In this document: piece by piece, positions 2,065 through 63,944 of the stretch
Layout of the letters: every line of letters begins with the position of its first letter
How positions within the stretch are numbered: the stretch's first letter is position 1
DNA from: Escherichia coli
Lineage (GTDB): Bacteria > Pseudomonadota > Gammaproteobacteria > Enterobacterales > Enterobacteriaceae
DNA length: 64,000 bases
NCBI RefSeq assembly: GCF_024700885.2
Contig: NZ_CP117014.1
Reading direction: 5' to 3' (one strand)
Notes under the pieces: model-generated
Seen by the model: the letters and a program-made list of their open reading frames with translations, nothing else
What the model was told of the DNA's origin: nothing
The model's database searches: none
Program-made: the position numbers and the translations under genes

Positions 2065-2557
2065 AGGTTTAACGCCAGCACAACTGGCAGAGCGTAACGC
2101 TGAGTATGTAACGGAAATTTCCCGACTTGAGAAAGCGTGTGCTGCGCTGGCGGCGGAGAATGCGAGACTGAATGCGATATGTGAGGATCGCCGCACGTTC
2201 ATTATGAATGGCGTGCAGCTTGGCTTTATCAAGGTGCCAACAGTGGAAATAGATCCAGCTCTCGAAACAATTCGTCTCGCCCTATCACCACAAAAAACCA
2301 CTCCTGCGACCGACACTTTCCTGGATGAAGTGAAGACTGAAGCACGCAAGGAGGGCGCTTACTTTGTGGCGAACAGGATGCTGGCTGCTTGGGAAGCTGG
2401 TTTTATTGATGATACTGCGAAGAACGCCGCGGATATTGCCCGGATGATTCTTACCTCTACTGAGTTTATGGCTAATGCGCGGGAAGGCGATTTTGACCGC
2501 TCATTCTCTGATGGCGTTCTCGAAGATATCGCCGAACAGCTTAGAAAAGGAAGGTAA
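2054..2557 (+). CDS. Ead/Ea22-like protein (short paralog)
   Basis: 167 aa; coiled-coil ALAAENARL plus C-terminal ATDTFLDEVKTEARKEG..AAW..GFID module shared with the ORF at 5766. Confidence 0.5.
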   Translation: MKSEGLTPAQLAERNAEYVTEISRLEKACAALAAENARLNAICEDRRTFIMNGVQLGFIKVPTVEIDPALETIRLALSPQKTTPATDTFLDEVKTEARKEGAYFVANRMLAAWEAGFIDDTAKNAADIARMILTSTEFMANAREGDFDRSFSDGVLEDIAEQLRKGR

Positions 2558-2560
2558 ACA

Positions 2561-2809
2561 GTGAGTAATACCGCACGACTACAGCTTGGTTTTTCACCGC
2601 TATCAAAAACCATCGTGTTGGCAAAAATGCGTGACTTAGGGGATGGAACAAAACGTCGTGTTGGCAATGATCGCGGTCGTGATGTAACCAACGAGGCCGC
2701 TCAACTCCTCTGGCATCTGGTCATGGCAGAAGGCGGTGAAATTAATTGGGAGCTGGATGATGGTTCTCGCATGGTATTGAAGGCAGAAAAGCAGGAACCA
2801 CCACAGTGA
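2561..2809 (+). CDS. hypothetical protein
   Basis: 82-aa ORF, GTG start, tightly packed in the plus-strand operon. Confidence 0.35.
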   Translation: MSNTARLQLGFSPLSKTIVLAKMRDLGDGTKRRVGNDRGRDVTNEAAQLLWHLVMAEGGEINWELDDGSRMVLKAEKQEPPQ

Positions 2810-3081
2810 ATATCGACACCACGATAACGCTCGATACGGCCCTAAATACCGGTCTGGCACTTCTTGGTTGGCTTTACATCATGTCCCGTACCTGGCGATG
2901 GCTGGGTTCCATTTTCCTAAAAGAGTGGAAAAAACGGCGCAAACAGGAACTACGCCAGAAGGCATTAGAAGCGTTCTATGACGCATTTGAACTTAGCCGC
3001 ATTGAACCAGGCACAACAGCCAGAATAGCGACAAAAGGCGACCTGATGATAGTGATGTTCAGACAGGAGAAAACCAAATGA
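2806..3081 (+). CDS. hypothetical small membrane protein
   Basis: 91 aa; 4-nt overlap with the upstream gene; hydrophobic segment GLALLGWLYIMS. Confidence 0.35.
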   Translation: MNIDTTITLDTALNTGLALLGWLYIMSRTWRWLGSIFLKEWKKRRKQELRQKALEAFYDAFELSRIEPGTTARIATKGDLMIVMFRQEKTK

Positions 3082-3302
3082 CAGAACAGACGATGACAAA
3101 TCGCGAACTTGTTGATGCCGCGATTGAACTTGCTGGCGATTTTTATTCCATGATGGGGTACACGCATCGCCCAGGCTTCAAATATTGGGAGTCTCCGCAC
3201 CCGCAAGAGCAACGGGTATTTCAAATGGCCTGCCGCGCTTTTGAAGTTATTCGCGGTTCTGATGTGATGGACGCGGTTGCTGATTTGGAGGATGAAGAGT
3301 GA
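3078..3302 (+). CDS. hypothetical acidic protein
   Basis: 74 aa; about 15 D/E versus 6 K/R by my count; ATGA overlap with the upstream gene. Confidence 0.4.
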   Translation: MTEQTMTNRELVDAAIELAGDFYSMMGYTHRPGFKYWESPHPQEQRVFQMACRAFEVIRGSDVMDAVADLEDEE

Positions 3303-3610
3303 ACACAATTAAAGAAATGCCGGTAGAACGTGATGAATATGGCTGCTGGACACATCCGGAGTATGAGAAGTTTTGCGCAGGTCGTGAATATATTTCCACT
3401 GAGGAATTTGACGCCTGGATGAAGGAAAATAATCTTCAGTGGACTATTCGCAGTATGGATGAAGATGATTTTGATCTGGACGCAGCTGGTCCCGATATTG
3501 CCGCCTGGGAACCGGAGCGACCAGAGGGTGAAGGCTGGTTTGTTGGCTCTATTCATGACACTGAAGATGGTCCGGTTTGTATCTGGCTGCGTGAGAAGGT
3601 TGCCGCATGA
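3299..3610 (+). CDS. hypothetical strongly acidic protein
   Basis: 103 aa; about 26 D/E versus 9 K/R by my count; GTGA overlap with the upstream gene. Confidence 0.4.
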   Translation: MNTIKEMPVERDEYGCWTHPEYEKFCAGREYISTEEFDAWMKENNLQWTIRSMDEDDFDLDAAGPDIAAWEPERPEGEGWFVGSIHDTEDGPVCIWLREKVAA

Positions 3611-3782
3611 CCCAGGCTCTGCATGAAGTGAATTTATATAGCCGTATTGATGGTTCTGGCTATAGAAACTAGACACGGGCGCGGTTTTTAGCGGAAATCT
3701 GACGCTAATGCAGGTGAAGGGAGGGCAGCTTAAAGTCTGATCAAATCATTTACGCACTCAAAATCACGTTAGAACATTGATT

Positions 3783-3796
3783 TTAGTTTTCTAACA
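3783..3796 (-). promoter_or_regulatory. operator-like 14-mer, copy 3
   Basis: Minus strand reads TGTTAGAAAACTAA; faces a weaker half CGTTAGAACATTGA at 3767-3780; 43 bp upstream of the ORF at 3839. Confidence 0.5.
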
Positions 3797-3838
3797 TATT
3801 ATTTTACCGATCGGAACAAAACAGAGTCGGTATGCATT

Positions 3839-4834
3839 ATGAGTGCAATAATCACCCCATATGTCGTAAATGAAACTGGTGTGGCTGTCTTTCCTGTAGA
3901 TAAGCCCACCAGCAATTACATCGGCGCAGGACGCCGTTTTCTTATATCCCCATTGCCGCGTGAACAGGCTGAAAACACCCCTGATGGTGTCGTTGACCTG
4001 AATTATTCACTGGTTGCCAACCAGTCACTGGCACCCTTTTTTCAAAGTGAGCGCGTATTTAACGCGTTAGGTGGTGAGGATTCTCTCGTTCACTGGGTTA
4101 GCACCAACATTCACGATTGCCAGGTGCATGATAAGCGCGATTGCAGCCACCAGCTAACCACCCATTTCTATAACGGTTCTGCCGTTCGCCTGTGCTGGAA
4201 GCATGATGCGGAATACATGATGAAGGGATACGGCAAGCTGGAAGACCAACTGTCACTGAATCGCGCCAACTGGATTATGAACTGGGCTGCCAGCGAGTTA
4301 AAACTTCCGCCAGATCGCGATCTGAGCATGGTTGAACTCACCTTTTGGGCCATTCGCCGGAATCTTAAAGACGAACTGCCTGATGAAGCTGGTCGCATTG
4401 CATTTTGTCAGCCAAAAACTGAAATCCCTACCGGCACTCTGAAAGAGTCGGATATTACTTGGGAGCATAGTACCCGCGAGCTGGTGGATATTTCCGCAGA
4501 GCAGATCGTCAATCTGTCCGTCGATGAAGATTCTGGCCTCCTATATATGCGCCGTCCAAAAACCTTACTCGGAAAAAGCCCGGCTTATCTCCGGTTTGTG
4601 GTGTCTCGCCCGTGTGTAGGCTGCGGCGGCAAGGTTAATCACCCATTCATGTACCGCGCCCGCTCGTTAAACGAACACGACCGCTGGACTGTTCCTCTTT
4701 GCGATGACTGCGCCAGAAGCGCAGAAAACGATGTCCGGGCATGGGAAAAAGCACATGGCATACGCCTTTACGTAGCCGCTAACCAGCTTTTCGACTTCGC
4801 CATTGAGCGCGGAGTGATCACGTTCAATAACTGA
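3839..4834 (+). CDS. DUF968-like protein
   Basis: 331 aa; C-terminal Cys cluster CVGCGG...PLCDDCA resembles the prophage DUF968 family (from memory). Confidence 0.45.
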   Translation: MSAIITPYVVNETGVAVFPVDKPTSNYIGAGRRFLISPLPREQAENTPDGVVDLNYSLVANQSLAPFFQSERVFNALGGEDSLVHWVSTNIHDCQVHDKRDCSHQLTTHFYNGSAVRLCWKHDAEYMMKGYGKLEDQLSLNRANWIMNWAASELKLPPDRDLSMVELTFWAIRRNLKDELPDEAGRIAFCQPKTEIPTGTLKESDITWEHSTRELVDISAEQIVNLSVDEDSGLLYMRRPKTLLGKSPAYLRFVVSRPCVGCGGKVNHPFMYRARSLNEHDRWTVPLCDDCARSAENDVRAWEKAHGIRLYVAANQLFDFAIERGVITFNN

Positions 4835-51012: not shown

Positions 51013-51048
51013 ATGCTTATTGGATACATTCGCATATCAACAAATGAT
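51013..51048 (+). pseudogene. orphan N-terminal fragment of a serine recombinase
   Basis: ATG CTT ATT GGA TAC ATT CGC ATA TCA ACA AAT GAT = MLIGYIRISTND, matching the first 12 aa of Cin, then unrelated sequence to a stop after 52 codons; convergent with cin. Confidence 0.5.
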
Positions 51049-51125: not shown

Positions 51126-51698
51126 TTACATTTCAGGTTGCGTTATGACAGTCCCAACAGGGTGATAGCGGTAGATCGTTGACAGTCCAATATCATAGAT
51201 AATTGCCAGCCGCTTTCTGTCATACCCTTTCTGGAGCAATCTTGCGATCTGCTCATGCTGCTCCTTCGTCAGTTTCGGGCGACGTCCTCCAACTCTTCCT
51301 TGTGCTCGCGCAGCAGCCAGTCCTGCCAGCGTGCGCTCAACTATCAGTTCACGCTCCATTTCTGCCAGTGCACCCATCATATGAAAAAAGAACCTTCCCA
51401 TCGGAGTGCTGGTATCGATTGAATCCGTCAGACTGCGAAAATTGACACCTTTTGCGCGTAACTCTTCTGTGAGAGCAATGAGGTGTTTCATTCTTCTACC
51501 CAACCGATCCAGCTTCCAGACCACCAATGTATCCCCTCTTTTAAGGCACTTTAAAGCGCGTTTCAGGCCTGGTCGTTCCGACTTGGTTCCGCTCATTTTG
51601 TCCTCAAAAATCTGTTCACATCCTGCGCACATTAATGCATTGCGTTGCAAATCTGTGTTTTGGTCATTTGTTGACACACGTATGTAGCCAATCAGCAT
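51126..51698 (-). CDS. cin: Cin-type serine DNA invertase
   Basis: 190 aa from MLIGYIRVSTNDQNTDLQ (catalytic Ser); C-terminal HTH GLSTIYRY; the 45-codon N-terminal extension in the ORF track runs into cixL and is rejected. Confidence 0.9.
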   Translation of the reverse strand: MLIGYIRVSTNDQNTDLQRNALMCAGCEQIFEDKMSGTKSERPGLKRALKCLKRGDTLVVWKLDRLGRRMKHLIALTEELRAKGVNFRSLTDSIDTSTPMGRFFFHMMGALAEMERELIVERTLAGLAAARAQGRVGGRRPKLTKEQHEQIARLLQKGYDRKRLAIIYDIGLSTIYRYHPVGTVITQPEM

Positions 51699-51752
51699 TA
51701 AAAATACTCCCTTTTGAGTGGTTAAAGTACTGAGATAATGTGGGGAGGATTT

Positions 51753-51778
51753 GAGAGATAAACGTTGGTTTGGGAGAA
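51753..51778. other. cixL crossover site
   Basis: Reverse complement TTCTCCCAAACCAACGTTTATCTCTC; the first 14 nt are identical to the site at 53584, in inverted orientation. Confidence 0.8.
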
Positions 51779-52123
51779 GCGGCAAAACGGAATGTGGGCA
51801 CAGGAGATAATCAGATACCGGATATGGGAGCATTCGCTTCTGGTTCGGGATGGTTCAGGCTACCAGGTGGATATATTGTTCAGTTTGGCACTTTTTCAGG
51901 AAACACGACCCGCTTTATCAGTGGACACTTCCCTATACCATTCCCTAATCGGCCGATGGTTTCAGTCAGTGTTATGTCTGATGCCGTTCAGTCAGACCCG
52001 TCGAATCCTGCCCCGCATGTTTTGTCTGTAAATTTTGAACATATCAGTAATTCAGCGTGGCGTGTGGCAACCAGTGATATCTCACAGCAATACAGATTCA
52101 GTTATATTTCGATAGGATGGTAG
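51770..52123 (+). CDS. alternative tail-fibre C-terminal segment Sv' (silent orientation)
   Basis: Reading frame continues from cixL as [21 protein letters not shown]...; it has no start of its own and would fuse to Sc after inversion. Confidence 0.7.
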
Positions 52124-52125
52124 AA

Positions 52126-52566
52126 ATGCAGAAATATATTTTCAGTGCCGATAAAAATGCGTTTTTCCCTGTGGAGCTTAAAATCGCTTATCAGGAATCC
52201 GGCGAATGGCCCGATGATGGAATCGAAATTGACGACACTGTTGCTGCCGAATTTATGAAGGAAGCACCAGAAGGAAAATACAGAGGTGTCATCGACGGAA
52301 TGCCTGCATGGATTGATATTCCACCGCCAACTCATGAGGAACAAATTGCCGCAGCCGAACTGAAAAAGCAGCAATTGATTAATCAGGTCAACGAATACAT
52401 AAACAGTAAGCAATGGCCTGGTAAAGCGGCGATTGGTCGCCTGAAAGGTGAGGAACTGGTGCAATATAATTTGTGGCTGGATTATCTGGACGCACTGGAA
52501 CTGGTCGATACTTCCAGTGCGCCAGATATTGAATGGCCTACGCCTCCGGCAGTTCAGGCCAGATGA
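52126..52566 (+). CDS. tail-fibre assembly protein U' (silent orientation)
   Basis: 146 aa; MQKYIFSADKNAFFP and C-terminal W..YLDAL..VDTS.AP.I.WP are typical Tfa motifs. Confidence 0.75.
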   Translation: MQKYIFSADKNAFFPVELKIAYQESGEWPDDGIEIDDTVAAEFMKEAPEGKYRGVIDGMPAWIDIPPPTHEEQIAAAELKKQQLINQVNEYINSKQWPGKAAIGRLKGEELVQYNLWLDYLDALELVDTSSAPDIEWPTPPAVQAR

Positions 52567-53131
52567 CATCAGGCGCGGTGCTGGTATCTGTTGCCTCCAC
52601 CGCGTCAATGTAATCCAGCACAGCGTTAAGTCGGGTGGTTTCTGCCTGCGTCAGCTTCCGCCCGGCCCGTAATTTCAGCTGAATCAGACTGATGGAAGCC
52701 ATTGCAGCATCAATCAGCGACTGGCGCTTTACTTCTGCCGCGTCTAGTGCGGCGCTATGCTGTGCCTCGGTATCCGTCACCCATTTCTCACCATCCCATT
52801 TATCGTATGGCGTTAACGGTGAAAGCGTGACATAACCGTCTTTGATGGCACCGATATAATCCACTGTAACAGCTGCGCCATTTTCTGTTGAGTAAACAGT
52901 CTCATTGCGATGGTCTTCTTCATGGCTCCATCCCTTACCCGTAAATACTGCCACTCTTCCCGGAATGTATTCGCCCGGGTCAATACCAGTGGAACAGGCG
53001 GGCATACTTACGCCAGTATTAATATATTCATCAGACCAGCCAGTATATTCATACGTAACTGCCTCATAATAAAAACAACGCATATTACCCGGTACTGTAG
53101 CCAGCCCATTTTCATCAAAAACAGGTTTCAT
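52538..53131 (-). CDS. U: tail-fibre assembly protein U
   Basis: 197 aa; C-terminal LNAVLDYIDAVEATDTSTAPDVIWPELP Tfa motif; ATGA overlap with the S stop. Confidence 0.75.
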   Translation of the reverse strand: MKPVFDENGLATVPGNMRCFYYEAVTYEYTGWSDEYINTGVSMPACSTGIDPGEYIPGRVAVFTGKGWSHEEDHRNETVYSTENGAAVTVDYIGAIKDGYVTLSPLTPYDKWDGEKWVTDTEAQHSAALDAAEVKRQSLIDAAMASISLIQLKLRAGRKLTQAETTRLNAVLDYIDAVEATDTSTAPDVIWPELPEA

Positions 53132-55740
53132 TATGCAGCCCTCACAATATAATTAAAGGCGATGTTACGTGGACGGTTTTCATTAGCTGTTGGCACGACA
53201 CGAGAGGCGTCGAATCCAAGGTCATCGGTTTTGCCTATATCAGTTGTGTTATTCGGCATTCTCGCTGATCGTGTTCCTGCATCGTAAAAAGCCCCTCTGA
53301 TTGCATCAAAAGACATACCGATCCCGCCATCTGCGAATCCCTCAATATTTCTTATTGCATCCCCCTGTGAAGATAATAATTGTCGCCCGGCATCCACTCC
53401 ACGTCCGTCATCCCAGCCACGAATAAATTCACCGCGTAAATCAGGCAATTTATTTGTCGGATAAACCTTTGCCAGTTCCGGGTATTCTTCAGCAGAAAAA
53501 GCCGCACCGTTGCATTTCAGCCAGCCTGTTGGCGGAGTGGCGGAAGGCCACGGAACAGGCACACCAACGGGTAATGCCGAACCTTCTCCCAAACCAAGGT
53601 AATTGAGGACATCTTTTATACTGCCCTTAGCGATAATAGCGCGACCAATAGCTGTAAGGGTTGTCAGCGCTGCGCGGTCTGCTCCGGTAAAATAAGGCAA
53701 CCGATCTGCTGCAGTGGCAAGTCCTGCCAGAGCAGTGAGCGTGGCATCTGCCGGTTGTTTTCCGTTTGCCAGATCGTATGCAGCCTTGACAGCTTTCGGT
53801 GTAGCGGCCAGCACTTCAGACGTGCTGTTAGTGGCACTACTGAGCTGAGTGATGCCTTTCGCTGTCAATGAAGCTGTTGGCACACCAGTGATCTGATTCC
53901 AGGGATGTATATGATTGGATGGTGCCTTTCCGGCTGCTAGATCGTATGCAGCTTTAACCGCTTTTGGAGTTGCAGCTAATGTTTCAGAAGTGCTGTTGGT
54001 GTCGCTACTGAGCTGAACTATCCCTTTTTGTGTCGTGGTTGCATCCTGGGCTGTGTACTTCCCGTTAGCCAGGTCATATGCAGCCTTGACAGCTTTCGGT
54101 GTAGCGGCCAGCACTTCAGACGTGCTGTTAGTGGCACTACTGAGCTGAGTGATGCCTTTCGCTGTCAATGAAGCTGTTGGCACACCAGTGATCTGATTCC
54201 AGGGATGTATATGATTGGATGGTGCCTTTCCGGCTGCTAGATCGTATGCAGCTTTAACCGCTTTTGGAGTTGCAGCTAATGTTTCAGAAGTGCTGTTGGT
54301 GTCGCTACTGAGCTGAACTATCCCTTTTTGTGTCGTGGTTGCATCCTGGGCTGTGTACTTCCCGTTAGCCAGGTCATATGCAGCCTTGACAGCTTTCGGT
54401 GTAGCGGCCAGCACTTCAGACGTGCTGTTAGTGGCACTACTGAGCTGAGTGATGCCTTTCGCTGTCAATGAAGCTGTTGGCACACCAGTGATCTGATTCC
54501 AGGGATGTATATGATTGGATGGTGCCTTTCCGGCTGCTAGATCGTATGCAGCTTTAACCGCTTTTGGAGTTGCAGCTAATGTTTCAGAAGTGCTGTTGGT
54601 GTCGCTACTGAGCTGAACTATCCCTTTTTGTGTCGTGGTTGCATCCTGGGCTGTGTACTTCCCGTTAGCCAGGTCATATGCAGCCTTGACAGCTTTCGGT
54701 GTAGCGGCCAGCACTTCAGACGTGCTGTTAGTGGCACTACTGAGCTGAGTGATGCCTTTCGCTGTCAATGAAGCTGTTGGCACACCAGTGATCTGATTCC
54801 AGGGATGTATATGATTGGATGGTGCCTTTCCGGCTGCTAGATCGTATGCAGCTTTAACCGCTTTTGGAGTTGCAGCTAATGTTTCAGAAGTGCTGTTGGT
54901 GTCGCTACTGAGCTGAACTATCCCTTTTTGTGTCGTGGTTGCATCCTGGGCTGTGTACTTCCCGTTAGCCAGGTCATATGCAGCCTTGACAGCTTTCGGT
55001 GTAGCGGCCAGCACTTCAGACGTGCTGTTAGTGGCACTACTGAGCTGAGTGATGCCTTTCGCTGTCAATGAAGCTGTTGGCACACCAGTGATCTGATTCC
55101 AGGGATGTATATGATTGGATGGTGCCTTTCCGGCTGCTAGATCGTATGCAGCCTTGACAGCTTTCGGTGTAGCCGCTTTTCTTTCTTCTGTACTGCTTAT
55201 TTCATTAGAGAATTCGACACCAACAGCCCGGTTAACCCGGTATTTAAGCACAATCATTTCTTTAGTCACAGCCGTTGCGCCGCTAGGCACGATAACTCGA
55301 CATAATTCAATTTGATTCTGCCCAATAGTATTGTCCGTACGCGCGTAAATTCTTGCAGCACTGACAGAAGATGCGCTATCTACCTGTGTCGTTTTTACAC
55401 CATGTTCAAAATTGGCTTCCAGCACAATAATGTTGGTAGCCCCTGCCTTTACCGAGACAGTCACATCTTCTATTTGCTGAACGGATATCTGAACATTATT
55501 TACATCTACTGAAGCAGCCCCTTTACCTTCGGAGTTTTCAGAAGTTATGCGGACACTCAACCCTGTGCCGGGAACCGGTTCAAATCCACAGTAAAAGCCA
55601 GGCAAAACAATATTTTTTAGTTTTCTGTTAAGAGCCAGACTACTATAGAGTTCGAAATATTGAACATCAGCAAGCAACGACTGTGAGACACCAGAGGATA
55701 GTGTCATTATGTTGTTCGTTTTATCAGCCCCCATAATCAA
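53131..55740 (-). CDS. S: tail fibre protein S (Sc plus currently expressed Sv)
   Basis: 869 aa; repeated AATPKAVKAAYDLA / LSS.TNSTSE fibre motifs; cixR is embedded at the YLGLGEG junction. Confidence 0.85.
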   Translation of the reverse strand: MIMGADKTNNIMTLSSGVSQSLLADVQYFELYSSLALNRKLKNIVLPGFYCGFEPVPGTGLSVRITSENSEGKGAASVDVNNVQISVQQIEDVTVSVKAGATNIIVLEANFEHGVKTTQVDSASSVSAARIYARTDNTIGQNQIELCRVIVPSGATAVTKEMIVLKYRVNRAVGVEFSNEISSTEERKAATPKAVKAAYDLAAGKAPSNHIHPWNQITGVPTASLTAKGITQLSSATNSTSEVLAATPKAVKAAYDLANGKYTAQDATTTQKGIVQLSSDTNSTSETLAATPKAVKAAYDLAAGKAPSNHIHPWNQITGVPTASLTAKGITQLSSATNSTSEVLAATPKAVKAAYDLANGKYTAQDATTTQKGIVQLSSDTNSTSETLAATPKAVKAAYDLAAGKAPSNHIHPWNQITGVPTASLTAKGITQLSSATNSTSEVLAATPKAVKAAYDLANGKYTAQDATTTQKGIVQLSSDTNSTSETLAATPKAVKAAYDLAAGKAPSNHIHPWNQITGVPTASLTAKGITQLSSATNSTSEVLAATPKAVKAAYDLANGKYTAQDATTTQKGIVQLSSDTNSTSETLAATPKAVKAAYDLAAGKAPSNHIHPWNQITGVPTASLTAKGITQLSSATNSTSEVLAATPKAVKAAYDLANGKQPADATLTALAGLATAADRLPYFTGADRAALTTLTAIGRAIIAKGSIKDVLNYLGLGEGSALPVGVPVPWPSATPPTGWLKCNGAAFSAEEYPELAKVYPTNKLPDLRGEFIRGWDDGRGVDAGRQLLSSQGDAIRNIEGFADGGIGMSFDAIRGAFYDAGTRSARMPNNTTDIGKTDDLGFDASRVVPTANENRPRNIAFNYIVRAA
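53584..53609. other. cixR crossover site
   Basis: TTCTCCCAAACCAAGGTAATTGAGGA inside S. Confidence 0.75.
53781..55151. repeat. perfect 300-bp tandem repeat, about 4.6 copies, inside S
   Basis: 60-nt sequence lines at 53821/54121/54421/54721/55021 (and the following lines) are letter-identical; each unit encodes 100 aa made of two diverged sub-repeats of 56 and 44 aa. Confidence 0.95.
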
Positions 55741-56183
55741 CCCTCAACTTGCTCGATTGTCATGAGAATACTGTAACGTTTACCTTTATAGAGGGTATCT
55801 TGCTGGGTGCAAAGCACACCAAAAGCCTGTTCCTCAGCATCAACAAGCACAAGCGTGTTAAAGTCGTAAGGCGTGTTATCCGGCATTCTTTCTTGAGGGA
55901 AGGCTGCATTGATCGTGATAATCCCATCCACGCTGGACAATATCAGATCGGACACAGCAAACTGTTGAGCGCCACTCAATTTAAAATCGAGCGGAATGTC
56001 CGCTATATTCCAGCCTCCTGCACCATTAGCAGTTACCAGACTAGATTTGCACCAATACGCCTTAGAGATAACAAAACGCGCACCTTTGCCGATCGCCGAC
56101 TCTGCGCGGCGTGAATAATAGTAGGAAAGTAATTGCGCCTTATACAGGCGGTTACCATCTCTTGCCTTTAAATTTTCAGCCAT
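55737..56183 (-). CDS. R: tail-fibre-associated protein R
   Basis: 148 aa; overlaps the S start; P1 order S-R-16. Confidence 0.5.
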   Translation of the reverse strand: MAENLKARDGNRLYKAQLLSYYYSRRAESAIGKGARFVISKAYWCKSSLVTANGAGGWNIADIPLDFKLSGAQQFAVSDLILSSVDGIITINAAFPQERMPDNTPYDFNTLVLVDAEEQAFGVLCTQQDTLYKGKRYSILMTIEQVEG

Positions 56184-56277
56184 ACGAACATAGCCCCTTC
56201 ATAAGCAATGAACCAAAGGAGAGTATGCTCAGTTTGTGATTTCCGTTGTTCTTCCCCCAAATGCGGGGGAAGAATTA

Positions 56278-57123
56278 TTAAACAGATTGAAGGTGGTAAT
56301 CCAAAGGCCACGCATCGAGTGGGGTTACATCAAGATGTAATTGCTTTTCTGCCGTTCGGTTCGGTATGGCATTAAGAGAAATATTGTCTGCCTGGCAGGA
56401 GGTATCACTACGGGATAGCATATCAGCCATACTCTCAGTAACATAAACACCTTCAATTACCGAAACATCCGTAGACAGGTAATTTAATATTTCTGCCACT
56501 TCAGGGAATACAGCACTAAGCCGAAACGAGACGCCATCAAAAACAATATGCAATGGCAACAAAGGGGCTATTACTGTTTCGAAGTCAGATAACAATTTCT
56601 GCACAGCGGCTTCTTTATCCTGCTCTCCATATGAGCGATATAGCTTGTTCTGATCAACAACGACCAGCCCCCTTGATGTCAGGAAGAGCTCACCGAATTG
56701 AGCCTGTGCCGTAGGTATTTCTATTTCGGTCGCAAAATATGAACCATAGGGGTGTTTTTCTATATTTACAGGTGCATACAGCGGTTCCCAACTAACAGGA
56801 ATACAACCGAATTCACGCCAGAATGTCTGCTCAATAGGCAAGATAGTACCTTTAAAGTGCACTTCATCTAAACGCTGCGCCAGAAGCATTGGCCTACGGG
56901 CATTATCTTTTTCAGTGATAACGAAAAAACGCCCGTATTCAGCAATGCGGGCATCCATATCCTCACTGTCCATAGTGAAGAAGGATTTTCTGTTACTTAT
57001 TCTTGTTAATATTGGTTCTACTGCCTCATTCCAGACATCCTGTAAAGCGTCTATAAATGCACTCCAGAGATGTGAATCCTGTTTTACTTTAGTTAATCGT
57101 TCCTTAAGCCAATTATCTTTCAT
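56278..57123 (-). CDS. 16: baseplate/tail-fibre attachment protein (gp16 position)
   Basis: 281 aa; positional match to P1 gene 16. Confidence 0.45.
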   Translation of the reverse strand: MKDNWLKERLTKVKQDSHLWSAFIDALQDVWNEAVEPILTRISNRKSFFTMDSEDMDARIAEYGRFFVITEKDNARRPMLLAQRLDEVHFKGTILPIEQTFWREFGCIPVSWEPLYAPVNIEKHPYGSYFATEIEIPTAQAQFGELFLTSRGLVVVDQNKLYRSYGEQDKEAAVQKLLSDFETVIAPLLPLHIVFDGVSFRLSAVFPEVAEILNYLSTDVSVIEGVYVTESMADMLSRSDTSCQADNISLNAIPNRTAEKQLHLDVTPLDAWPLDYHLQSV

Positions 57124-57133
57124 GCTAACCTCA

Positions 57134-58564
57134 TTACGGGTAAGAAATGCTGAACGTTGAAGATTTTACGTTAAGATAAATGAAGTCATTAAAGTAAACA
57201 GCATCTTTCATATTTTGTATTGTTATGTCGTAAGACAGAAACATATCCAGAGACTCTATTACTCGCCAAATATCTTTAACTTTTACCTGTGCATAACATT
57301 GCTGGGAATCATCATCACTCTGTAGTAATAAACTGAATGATGACGAATCACGGCCAAAATTATCTTCCAACGCTGCTTTAATAGCATTTTGAGCATCGTC
57401 TATCAGAACATTTTTACGTGCAATACCTATAAATTTTATAGTAAATGGCTGTTCATTTGTATCTACATACTCGAACCGCTTGTTCAACTCATTTGGAACA
57501 TTCTCTAGAGCTTTCAGTATTTCTGATTTTAGCTGAGCCTGGCTTACACCCGGCTTATGTCCGCAAAAGAAAATTTTGTTGATGTTTCGAACGTCAAACC
57601 CAGTTATTTTCTCTTGTAACGCTTCGCCCCAAACGTTCAACCATGAAGTTCCATGAACAACATTCTGAATGAATTGGCGATAATCACCGCCCCATACCAC
57701 TTGTTCATCGTATGCAACATAATACTGAGCACGATTTCGAGTTTCTTCTGTAGTTTCCATACCACTACCACCGGTAATGATCGAATCAGTTTTAAACTCT
57801 AGTGACTCCGCATATTGAGCGATATTTCCAGCCGGTTCTAACTTTTGTCCTTCAGCCAAAGTATAGTCGCCAAGGCTAGCCATAACATCGATTCGAACCT
57901 GACAGCCTGCTGGAGGCATCATACCCATAGAACCATCACCAAACTTGACTCCAAGTTGTTCTGTAGGTTTATATGCCAATGAATAGTGCTTACTCTTGTC
58001 TCTGGACATTCTAAATAATGGGTTATATGTCCATTTTTCTTCTACTCCATCTGTAATAACATAAACATCCAGGCTAGAGACTTCTTTTGTTAACTCTCTG
58101 GAAAGCAACAATGTCAGAAATAAAGTTTCCTTCTCAATATCAAATGTAATGCTAACAGCTTCATGCTGTTTAGTTTCTACGCCAGAAACAGTTCCTCCAG
58201 CAGGAATTACAACACTGTTAATAATTGCCAAAGGTGTTTGGTCATTGGCAAGCAATTCAGCCCCGGCTGGTAACGTAATATCCCGATCAGTTTTATTGGT
58301 TATAGACGTTGTTCCGTATGAAGCACTAACAAATCGCCCTACGTAGCTACGGTCTTCAGCAACCGCTAAAATACTTGAGCGACGCGTTGCCGTTGAAATA
58401 AGTCCCTCAGTGAGGCCGCGGCTTGCAAATGTACGGGCAATATAAATAAGCTGCGCTCCGAATATAGCGTGCATCTGCACAAACTGACTATTTACAAATC
58501 GTGACCACCATGTGTTTTCGTTTAACTTGGCGTTAAATTTGTCCAGTAATTCTGTAATCGTCAC
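57134..58564 (-). CDS. bplA: baseplate protein (BplA position, gpJ-like)
   Basis: 476 aa; overlaps the upstream gene by 4 nt; positional. Confidence 0.5.
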   Translation of the reverse strand: MTITELLDKFNAKLNENTWWSRFVNSQFVQMHAIFGAQLIYIARTFASRGLTEGLISTATRRSSILAVAEDRSYVGRFVSASYGTTSITNKTDRDITLPAGAELLANDQTPLAIINSVVIPAGGTVSGVETKQHEAVSITFDIEKETLFLTLLLSRELTKEVSSLDVYVITDGVEEKWTYNPLFRMSRDKSKHYSLAYKPTEQLGVKFGDGSMGMMPPAGCQVRIDVMASLGDYTLAEGQKLEPAGNIAQYAESLEFKTDSIITGGSGMETTEETRNRAQYYVAYDEQVVWGGDYRQFIQNVVHGTSWLNVWGEALQEKITGFDVRNINKIFFCGHKPGVSQAQLKSEILKALENVPNELNKRFEYVDTNEQPFTIKFIGIARKNVLIDDAQNAIKAALEDNFGRDSSSFSLLLQSDDDSQQCYAQVKVKDIWRVIESLDMFLSYDITIQNMKDAVYFNDFIYLNVKSSTFSISYP

Positions 58565-63840: not shown

Positions 63841-63944
63841 GATGTGTGCTGGAGGGAGAACGATGTGTGCTGACGGGAAAAATATGTGTGCTGGAGGGTT
63901 TTACATGTGTGCTGACGGGATGTAGGATGTGTGCTGACGGGAAA
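63841..63944 (+). repeat. five RepA iterons (incC/oriR)
   Basis: (G/T/C)ATGTGTGCTG(G/A)(A/C)GGG... at 63841, 63862, 63883, 63904 and 63926, with 21-22 bp spacing; matches the P1 19-bp iteron ATGTGTGCTGGAGGGAAA. Confidence 0.85.

Follow-up and report, generated by a model that had tools for sequence, protein, structure and literature searches.

A tail-fibre gene in a 64,000-nucleotide (nt) stretch of Escherichia coli DNA (contig NZ_CP117014.1 of assembly GCF_024700885.2, hereafter the window) contains several copies of a 300-base-pair (bp) unit arranged in tandem without a single mismatch. The locus raises the question of what these repeats are, how they came to be identical, and how far their number can be relied upon. 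The reading that we favour, at a probability of roughly 80%, is that they form a genuine and recently amplified array of shaft modules in the constant (Sc) part of a fibre gene of the phage P1 S type, carried by a phage-plasmid related to P1 and D6.

The periodicity of the array is exact. From 53777 to 54852 every position is identical to the one 300 bp further on, and the perfectly periodic block thus extends from 53777 to 55152 (1376 bp, 4.59 units as assembled). The first-pass annotation of this DNA had placed the array at 53781-55151, within 4 bases of these ends, and the two unit peptides that it listed were both recovered exactly in the minus-strand translation. Tandem Repeats Finder called 53762-55164 with a period of 300, 4.7 copies, 99% matches, no indels and a score of 2764, and a repeat search of the array returned copies of 300 nt, four of them at 99-100% and a fifth at 79%. 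No other high-scoring tandem repeat of long period is present in the 64-kb window. Outside the perfect block the periodicity fades through mismatches at third codon positions, and these zones are the edges of the array, at which the first module and the degenerate last one depart from the repeat. Chance cannot account for 1.4 kb of exact periodicity.

Each 300-bp unit consists of two modules of the Pfam family PF03406, module A with 168 bp (56 amino acids, aa) and module B with 132 bp (44 aa). As resolved by module decomposition and allele typing, the coding strand reads N-terminal domain (aa 1-186), A1-[B1-A2]x4 and then B', a degenerate B module that runs on into a conserved segment ahead of the crossover site (cix) of the gene. 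The features of the fibre gene are as follows.

53131..55734, minus strand: S-type tail-fibre gene, Sc plus Sv in the current orientation, 867 aa, ATG at 55734
55177..55734, minus strand: N-terminal domain, aa 1-186, presumed to dock to the baseplate, common to phage D6 gp35
53809..55176, minus strand: nine complete PF03406 modules, A1 B1 A2 B1 A2 B1 A2 B1 A2, from decomposition and allele typing
55176, 55008, 54876, 54708, 54576, 54408, 54276, 54108 and 53976, minus strand: module starts on the coding strand
55153..55176, minus strand: opening 24 nt of module A1, an exact match to the 5' end of the first B module in relatives (B2/B4/B7)
53777..55152, no strand: perfect 300-periodic block, from nt 25 of A1 to nt 32 of B'
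53601..53808, minus strand: B', the degenerate last module, with the segment ahead of the crossover site (…GKQPADATLTALAGLATAADRLPYFTG…DVLNY), from translations; segment conserved in P1 S and D6 S

The junction peptide AATPKAVKAAYDLA is common to A and B modules. Over the 42 nt that encode it the two types differ at 11 positions, all of them synonymous third codon positions, and their longest exact matches reach just 8-12 nt. A and B are thus anciently diverged paralogues under purifying selection. Because they differ at 11 of 42 sites, only the A+B pair offers long perfect homology, and for this reason 300 bp is the dominant register of the array. Module A1 is a chimera of B and A, recombined inside the 8-nt GCTGCATA that both types contain, as its first 24 nt match the first B module of relatives; in relatives with 99.8-99.9% identical flanks the array opens with a B module.

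To place the window among its relatives, the arrays of 13 related loci from complete genome assemblies were decomposed in the same manner. They carry the same modules in 2 to 12 copies, corresponding to 1-6 units, and include the following strings.

L005, p1506-2: B-A (1 unit)
L001, pKY1497_2: B2 A2 B1 A2 (2 units)
L004, p1_000533: B2 A2 B1 A4 (2 units)
L003, pCUVET20-PYO4.3: B4 A2 [B1 A4]x4 (5 units)
L009, pB2C_96: B7 A5 [B1 A5]x4 (5 units)
L002, STEFF_1: [B3 A3]x6 (6 units)
L015, FDAARGOS_1289: [A10 B8]x3 A10 B9 (4 units)
L016, FDAARGOS_448: five units with two variant A alleles (A11, A12)
L008, AR_0119: [A8 B6]x2 [A9 B6] A9
L007, pF719-4, and L017, pF374-2: irregular or A-only strings with chimeric modules

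The 2.3-kb upstream flank of the window is 99.87% identical to that of L009 and 99.78% identical to those of L001 and L004, and behind these near-identical flanks stand arrays of five, two and two units, respectively. In-frame copy-number polymorphism arises within less than 0.2% flank divergence. The comparison of copy number between isolates that had been proposed at first pass therefore yields a polymorphic array, and the lack of polymorphism among relatives that would have counted against the proposal is not what we observe. Within an array the internal copies represent a single allele (A2 in the window, A4 in L003, A5 in L009, A3 in L002), the first copy often differs, and between arrays the alleles are set apart by private single-nucleotide polymorphisms. 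L003 resembles L004 with its terminal unit amplified. Together, this indicates that the arrays have probably expanded and contracted recently and recurrently, by unequal recombination or slippage. The earlier proposal that zero divergence reflects a very recent expansion is well supported by near-identical plasmids that differ in copy number and carry private alleles. The accompanying prediction of 100-aa steps holds in part: such steps are seen, but they are not exclusive, as chimeric A/B junctions also give steps of 44 and 56 aa. Chimeric modules were found in the alleles A1, A6, A7, A9, A13 and B9.

The same variability is seen in a wider set of sequences. The 120 best-scoring homologous proteins, a list in which long arrays are over-represented and short-read drafts may occur, contain 35 different module strings of 4-13 modules; 97 of the 120 alternate strictly, and the commonest string, BABABABA, occurs in 45. 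A two-unit probe was covered to at least 80% in 180 of 5,426 complete E. coli genomes and in 147 PLSDB plasmids (matched set: E. coli, Klebsiella, Salmonella, Shigella).

Two further loci are described here for their rearranged fibre genes. In L006 (NZ_CP041630.1, pPE15-92K; fibre gene 2501-4477) a B' module with its pre-cix segment is joined to an internal part of an A module (…SVLDY/HPWNQITG…, with the slash marking the fusion), and a second B' with pre-cix segment follows after this fusion; the rearrangement is either a product of illegitimate recombination or an assembly error. L018 (NZ_CP098187.1, chromosome, 120320-127056) is a P2-like prophage (GPW/gp25, baseplate J, I, V) beside a truncated rfaH. 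Its tail fibre contains strongly diverged A and B modules followed by the B1-A5 unit in a form identical to that of the plasmids, and its recombinase protein, WP_000904922.1, is that of plasmids L001, L004 and L009. To judge from these identities, the 3' half of the fibre gene and the invertase have apparently moved laterally between P2-like and P1-like elements.

A mechanism for the change in copy number can be outlined from known properties of repeated DNA. Perfect repeats of 300 bp would recombine unequally, in a RecA-dependent manner, or slip during replication, independently of RecA, and in either case 100 aa would be gained or lost, always in frame. Both processes are well documented for E. 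coli tandem repeats of about 300 bp, and we presume that one or the other is at work here. Rarer events at the 8-24 nt of microhomology between A and B would produce steps of 44 or 56 aa and leave chimeric modules behind. The array in the window is most readily derived from a two-unit ancestor of the L001 type (B2-A2-B1-A2), in which [B1-A2] was amplified and a crossover between B and A removed the first B. Amplification would be expected to lengthen the part of the fibre that separates the docking N-terminus from the exchangeable tip, and a change in copy number would accordingly be expected to alter fibre length. In the long fibres of T4 a residue accounts for about 0.05-0.07 nm; as a rough estimate, one unit would add about 5-7 nm to the fibre.

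Frameshift-type phase variation, as in a contingency locus, was considered and rejected: the unit of 300 bp and the modules of 168 and 132 bp are all multiples of 3, and every variant remains in frame. Chi sites were examined as a possible driver of recombination, and none is located inside the repeat array. In the 64 kb as a whole Chi (GCTGGTGG) occurs 36 times, against 1.6 expected from dinucleotide-preserving shuffles with a maximum of 6; its over-representation is known for P1. Our literature search returned no published description of copy-number polymorphism in the A/B array.

The protein that carries the array is well defined. The mechanically derived open reading frame starts from a TTG at 55740 (53131-55740, 869 aa), and the exact 867-aa protein is on record as WCP86959.1/WP_272774155.1, a 'tail fiber protein' from a 95,886-bp E. 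coli plasmid. PF03406 (Phage_fiber_2) matches in 10 repeated stretches above the curated cut-off (E 2e-186, 603.8 bits against a cut-off of 22), and the C-terminus holds a PF07484 Collar domain; alignments of the tip were obtained with the short tail fibre of a phage (9cuy) and with T4 gp37 (2xgf). The first-pass annotation had identified the gene as a tail-fibre gene, and the PF03406 repeats, the Collar tip and the likeness to P1 S and D6 gp35 agree with this. The 5' 587 nt of the query are 97.3% identical to phage D6, mostly to the 5' end of its long-tail-fibre gene, and the same N-terminus, ending in ...SSTEERK/AATP, is found in D6 S and pEc-050 S. In phage Mu the N-terminus of gp49, the only part of that protein modelled in the cryo-EM structure, is the docking element (PMC11915804). 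By analogy, aa 1-186 may serve for docking in the present fibre. As they are placed between this docking N-terminus and the tip, the A and B modules would form part of the extended trimeric shaft. The statement made at first pass that the repeats expand the shaft is thus upheld as far as their place between the N-terminal domain and the receptor-binding end is concerned, while the designation as a shaft follows from position and homology. P1 S is the component of the virion tail fibre that sets host specificity (PMC9024508), and we take the fibre described here to be a putative counterpart in this role.

Over 20 kb around the fibre gene the window is 93-97% identical to E. coli and Salmonella plasmids of ~90-97 kb that encode sit (a transglycosylase), baseplate and tail-fibre proteins, a recombinase and a holin, although no record in the E. 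coli and plasmid collections spans more than 82% of a 20-kb stretch. On this similarity, the match to D6 and the gene order it is assigned to the P1/D6-like phage-plasmids of E. coli. The operon comprises sit, pmgA, bplA, gp16, R, S, U, U', cin and the holin gene, in the order of D6 and P1 and in synteny with annotated plasmids. Its remaining features, several of which make up an apparatus for switching the fibre tip, are listed below.

55737..56183, minus strand: homologue of P1 gene R, directly upstream of S; the L012 counterpart matches PF26881 Phage_P1_tail_fiber_R
53583..53600, no strand: cix-like crossover site in the fibre gene, encoding LGLGE; inverted repeat, 18 nt, 94% complementary
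51762..51779, no strand: partner cix-like crossover site, second arm of the 18-nt inverted repeat (TTCTCCCAAACCAAGGT)
51762..53600, no strand: invertible segment with Sv, U, U' and Sv', from the cix pair, Pfam and simulated inversion
52538..53131, minus strand: tail-fibre assembly chaperone U, 197 aa (PF02413 Caudo_TAP, E 4e-27)
52117..52566, plus strand: alternative chaperone U', 149 aa (PF02413, E 2e-34)
51770..52123, plus strand: alternative tip cassette Sv', a promoterless C-terminal coding segment (PF21882 Gp53-like_C, E 5e-9)
51126..51698, minus strand: Cin/Min-type serine recombinase, 190 aa, ATG at 51698 (PF00239 Resolvase, E 1e-50; PF02796 HTH_7)

The R gene differs at 2 nucleotides from its counterpart in L012, and D6 annotates the corresponding gene as 'similar to P1 gene R'; the genes upstream of S in L012 match PF26881 (R) and PF26903 (gp16) and are closely related to those of the window. 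D6 annotates cixR at the place equivalent to 53583..53600. The chaperone genes U and U' form a pair in opposite orientation, and the adjacent recombinase is of the Cin/Min/Gin type (PF00239 and PF02796 in the open reading frame 51126-51833), with 573-nt recombinase genes at the same position in relatives. When the inversion between the site in the gene and its inverted partner was simulated, Sc became fused in frame to a 117-aa Gp53-like_C cassette to give a predicted S' protein of 833 aa. In relatives Cin/Min-type inversion does occur in nature. Two plasmids of 89,996 bp from the Ec-050 isolates T5/T20, NZ_CP086493.1 (L010, 4929-6605) and NZ_CP086473.1 (L011, 2447-4129), have S proteins that are identical up to LGLGE and different thereafter, ending in a Collar and a gp53-like tip. 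The Ec-050 serial isolates were also considered for assessing the stability of the array and proved uninformative, as they carry a different shaft without A/B modules. In the window the array is located in the constant Sc part, upstream of the Cin-type invertible segment, and both tip variants would consequently share the same shaft.

Side observations concern the surroundings of the recombinase gene and the edge of the window. A 35-nt inverted repeat, 83% complementary, links 51013-51047 with 51664-51698: a second copy of the 5' end of the cin-like gene (MLIGYIRVSTNE), turned round, lies between the 3' end of cin and the holin gene. This inverted copy looks like what is left of another recombinase gene, and in the annotations of L008, L010 and L011 the place is occupied by a partial recombinase pseudogene. 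At 63841-63942 a 21-bp tandem repeat with 4.8 copies and 74% matches has the consensus GATGTGTGCTGAAGGGAGAAC, which is similar to the iteron of P1 RepA (GATGTGTGCTGGAGGGAAA). The window may thus be bordered here by an array of iterons or an incompatibility array.

The comparison with P1 and D6 separates what is conserved in this locus from what has been exchanged. Like P1 gpS and D6 gp35, the fibre gene lies in an operon of the order sit-pmgA-bplA-16-R-S-U / U'-S'-cin, has a conserved pre-cix segment, a cix site encoding LGLGE and a serine invertase, and is provided with alternative tips that each have their own chaperone. The difference lies in the shaft. In P1 S a single diverged B-like module precedes two modules of ~90 aa of another type (…SPxLTGxPTAPTAxQGTNxTQIAxTAxV…), and D6 S and pEc-050 S have only two such modules of ~90 aa. 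All three are devoid of the A/B array, while in the window the shaft segment is replaced by nine A/B modules and a degenerate tenth. The tips of the window are of the Collar and Gp53-like_C types, unlike the Sv tip of P1. The junction …ERK/AATP and the pre-cix segment are common to the window, P1, D6 and pEc-050 (window 55177-55734 against L014, L013 and L010), and with these shared ends the stretch between them represents an exchangeable shaft cassette, filled by A/B arrays in some plasmids. Proteins built on the same conserved ends range from 558 to about 1,060 aa.

A parallel to the array is Sc/SvQ of p15B (Q47433; P0102, 73% identity), which shares with the window two exact B modules and has seven TPKAV motifs. 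Its 100-aa-periodic run is limited to 38 residues, compared with 4.6 perfect units in the window, and its crossover sites number six, against the two that bound the single invertible segment of the window. For the Sc regions of P1 and p15B, Sandmeier, Iida and Arber (J Bacteriol 1992) reportedly described amplified sequences that form mosaics of repeats with partial relatedness. The PF03406 family further extends to P2 gpH, lambda Stf, Mu S and the prophage fibres of enterohaemorrhagic E. coli (EHEC), and a search with the unit returned P2-like H proteins at 64-73% identity, with lambda Stf and P1 S lower. These fibres contain one to a few diverged copies, in contrast to the long, identical arrays of variable number considered here.

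More distant systems offer analogies for individual aspects. In T-even phages the 'His-box' motifs of gp37 are said to act as recombination junctions that reshuffle modules and swap adhesins between phages (Tetart, Desplats, Krisch 1998). In the window the AATPKAVKAAYDLA junction plays the same role, as seen in the chimeric modules, but the outcome is a change of copy number and module order within one shaft rather than the exchange of adhesins. Adenovirus fibre shafts, built of pseudo-repeats, differ in length by whole repeats from one relative to the next. For the collagen-like and coiled-coil segments of EHEC prophage fibres, Ghosh et al. 2012 found Col and PCoil lengths to differ by multiples of 3 and 7 residues (PMC3368898). 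Such whole-repeat steps are shared with the window, which differs in the chemistry of its repeats, in its unit size of 100 aa and in being known from sequence only.

How firmly can the array be taken at face value? Several points weigh against our reading. The figure of 4.59 units is a count at the level of the assembly, and part of the protein census may consist of short-read drafts with unreliable copy numbers. In L012 (GCA_040964675.2, ABTTMI020000003.1), whose S gene is 100% identical to that of the window from the ATG through the entire array, the contig stops exactly at the last base of the perfect block (window position 53777), a place where assemblers evidently struggle. An AlphaFold2 model of aa 1-386 computed without an alignment was unusable, with a mean predicted local distance difference test score (pLDDT) of 31.8 and a predicted template-modelling score (pTM) of 0.19; the available homologues hardly differ from one another within the modules, and modelling a trimeric fibre as a monomer is doubtful in itself. 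Sequence matches in the PDB are restricted to the Collar tip (9cuy, 2xgf) and one Mu S repeat (5yvq/9ki1, 8ju3). Finally, that the element is inducible, and that fibres of differing copy number are functional or differ in length, is a supposition.

One alternative is that the copy number is an assembly artefact. In that case the array would exist, with its 4.6 units reflecting the heuristic by which an assembler resolved a loop. The perfect block of 1376 bp exceeds short reads and typical insert sizes, and the contig end of L012 has the look of a graph break at a repeat boundary. We nevertheless consider this explanation unlikely, as two separate assemblies agree on at least 4.59 units with zero mismatches and the reading frame of the gene is preserved; the chimeric first module, too, makes sense and is nothing that an assembler would make up. 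Arrays of 4-6 units are moreover present in many 'complete genome' records, including those of the FDAARGOS and AR-bank projects, which are presumably long-read based, judging from the projects and from 'unitig' naming. The caveat to this effect in the first-pass annotation is thus justified for the exact copy number of this record, but not for the existence of such arrays. Note that in the neighbourhood of R, gp16 and bplA (window 56109-57434, 1.3 kb) L012 differs from the window at 22 sites. An identical S gene beside such divergence suggests a mosaic exchange of S, combined with an assembly break at the repeat boundary.

A second proposal accepts the array and assigns it a function: reversible gain and loss of 100-aa units at high frequency would be selected for, with fibre length setting the access to receptors under O-antigen or capsule and complementing the Cin switch. 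Copy number does change more rapidly than the flanks acquire point mutations, no change disrupts the frame, the array is common to both tip variants, the same operon already holds a dedicated variation system, and proteins of 558 to about 1,060 aa with very different shafts are built on the same N-terminal domain. Against this stands that any perfect 300-bp tandem repeat is unstable even without selection, that the argument is drawn from sequence and not from phenotypes, populations or host associations, and that no paper was found that ties fibre repeat number to host range in the P1-like family. The prevalence of BABABABA (45 of 120 proteins, from a biased sample) rather suggests a preferred length than free variation. 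We therefore regard adaptive tuning of length as doubtful. Similarly low odds are given to its extended form, in which the Sc array would be a second, recombination-driven axis of fibre variation in steps of 44, 56 and 100 aa beside Cin/Min, lysates would contain fibres of mixed length, and this length would decide which lipopolysaccharide or capsule types can be infected. The suggestion at first pass that changes in length adapt host range or O-antigen depth is speculation.

The least probable alternative is an old array whose copies are kept identical by continuous gene conversion or by selection for identical modules: divergent edge copies around identical internal ones are a classical signature of concerted evolution as well, but plasmids with 99.8-99.9% identical flanks hold two versus five units, L004 and L003 differ simply by amplification of the terminal unit, and variant internal modules are tolerated in L016 (A11, A12) and L008 (A8, A9), so that module identity is not a structural requirement. 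Recent and independent amplification from a two-unit state would fit the pattern among relatives better than old, conversion-homogenised arrays.

The array belongs to an established repeat family and lies in a gene of familiar type, and its amplification is a well documented case of something already known rather than a new mechanism. What the present analysis adds is clear evidence of an array kept in flux by recombination across widespread P1-like plasmids, and its placement in the part of the fibre that is constant to both tip variants. P1-like phage-plasmids occur frequently in E. coli, Salmonella and Klebsiella of clinical and animal origin, they carry resistance genes, and P1 itself is under engineering as a vehicle for DNA delivery. 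If shaft length indeed varies freely, the fibre genes of these plasmids would be systematically prone to mis-assembly from short reads, and the host range of their phages may depend on more than the tip cassette. The A and B modules would then also provide a natural in-frame route to fibres of graded length, with which the reach through O-antigen or capsule could be tested in adsorption.

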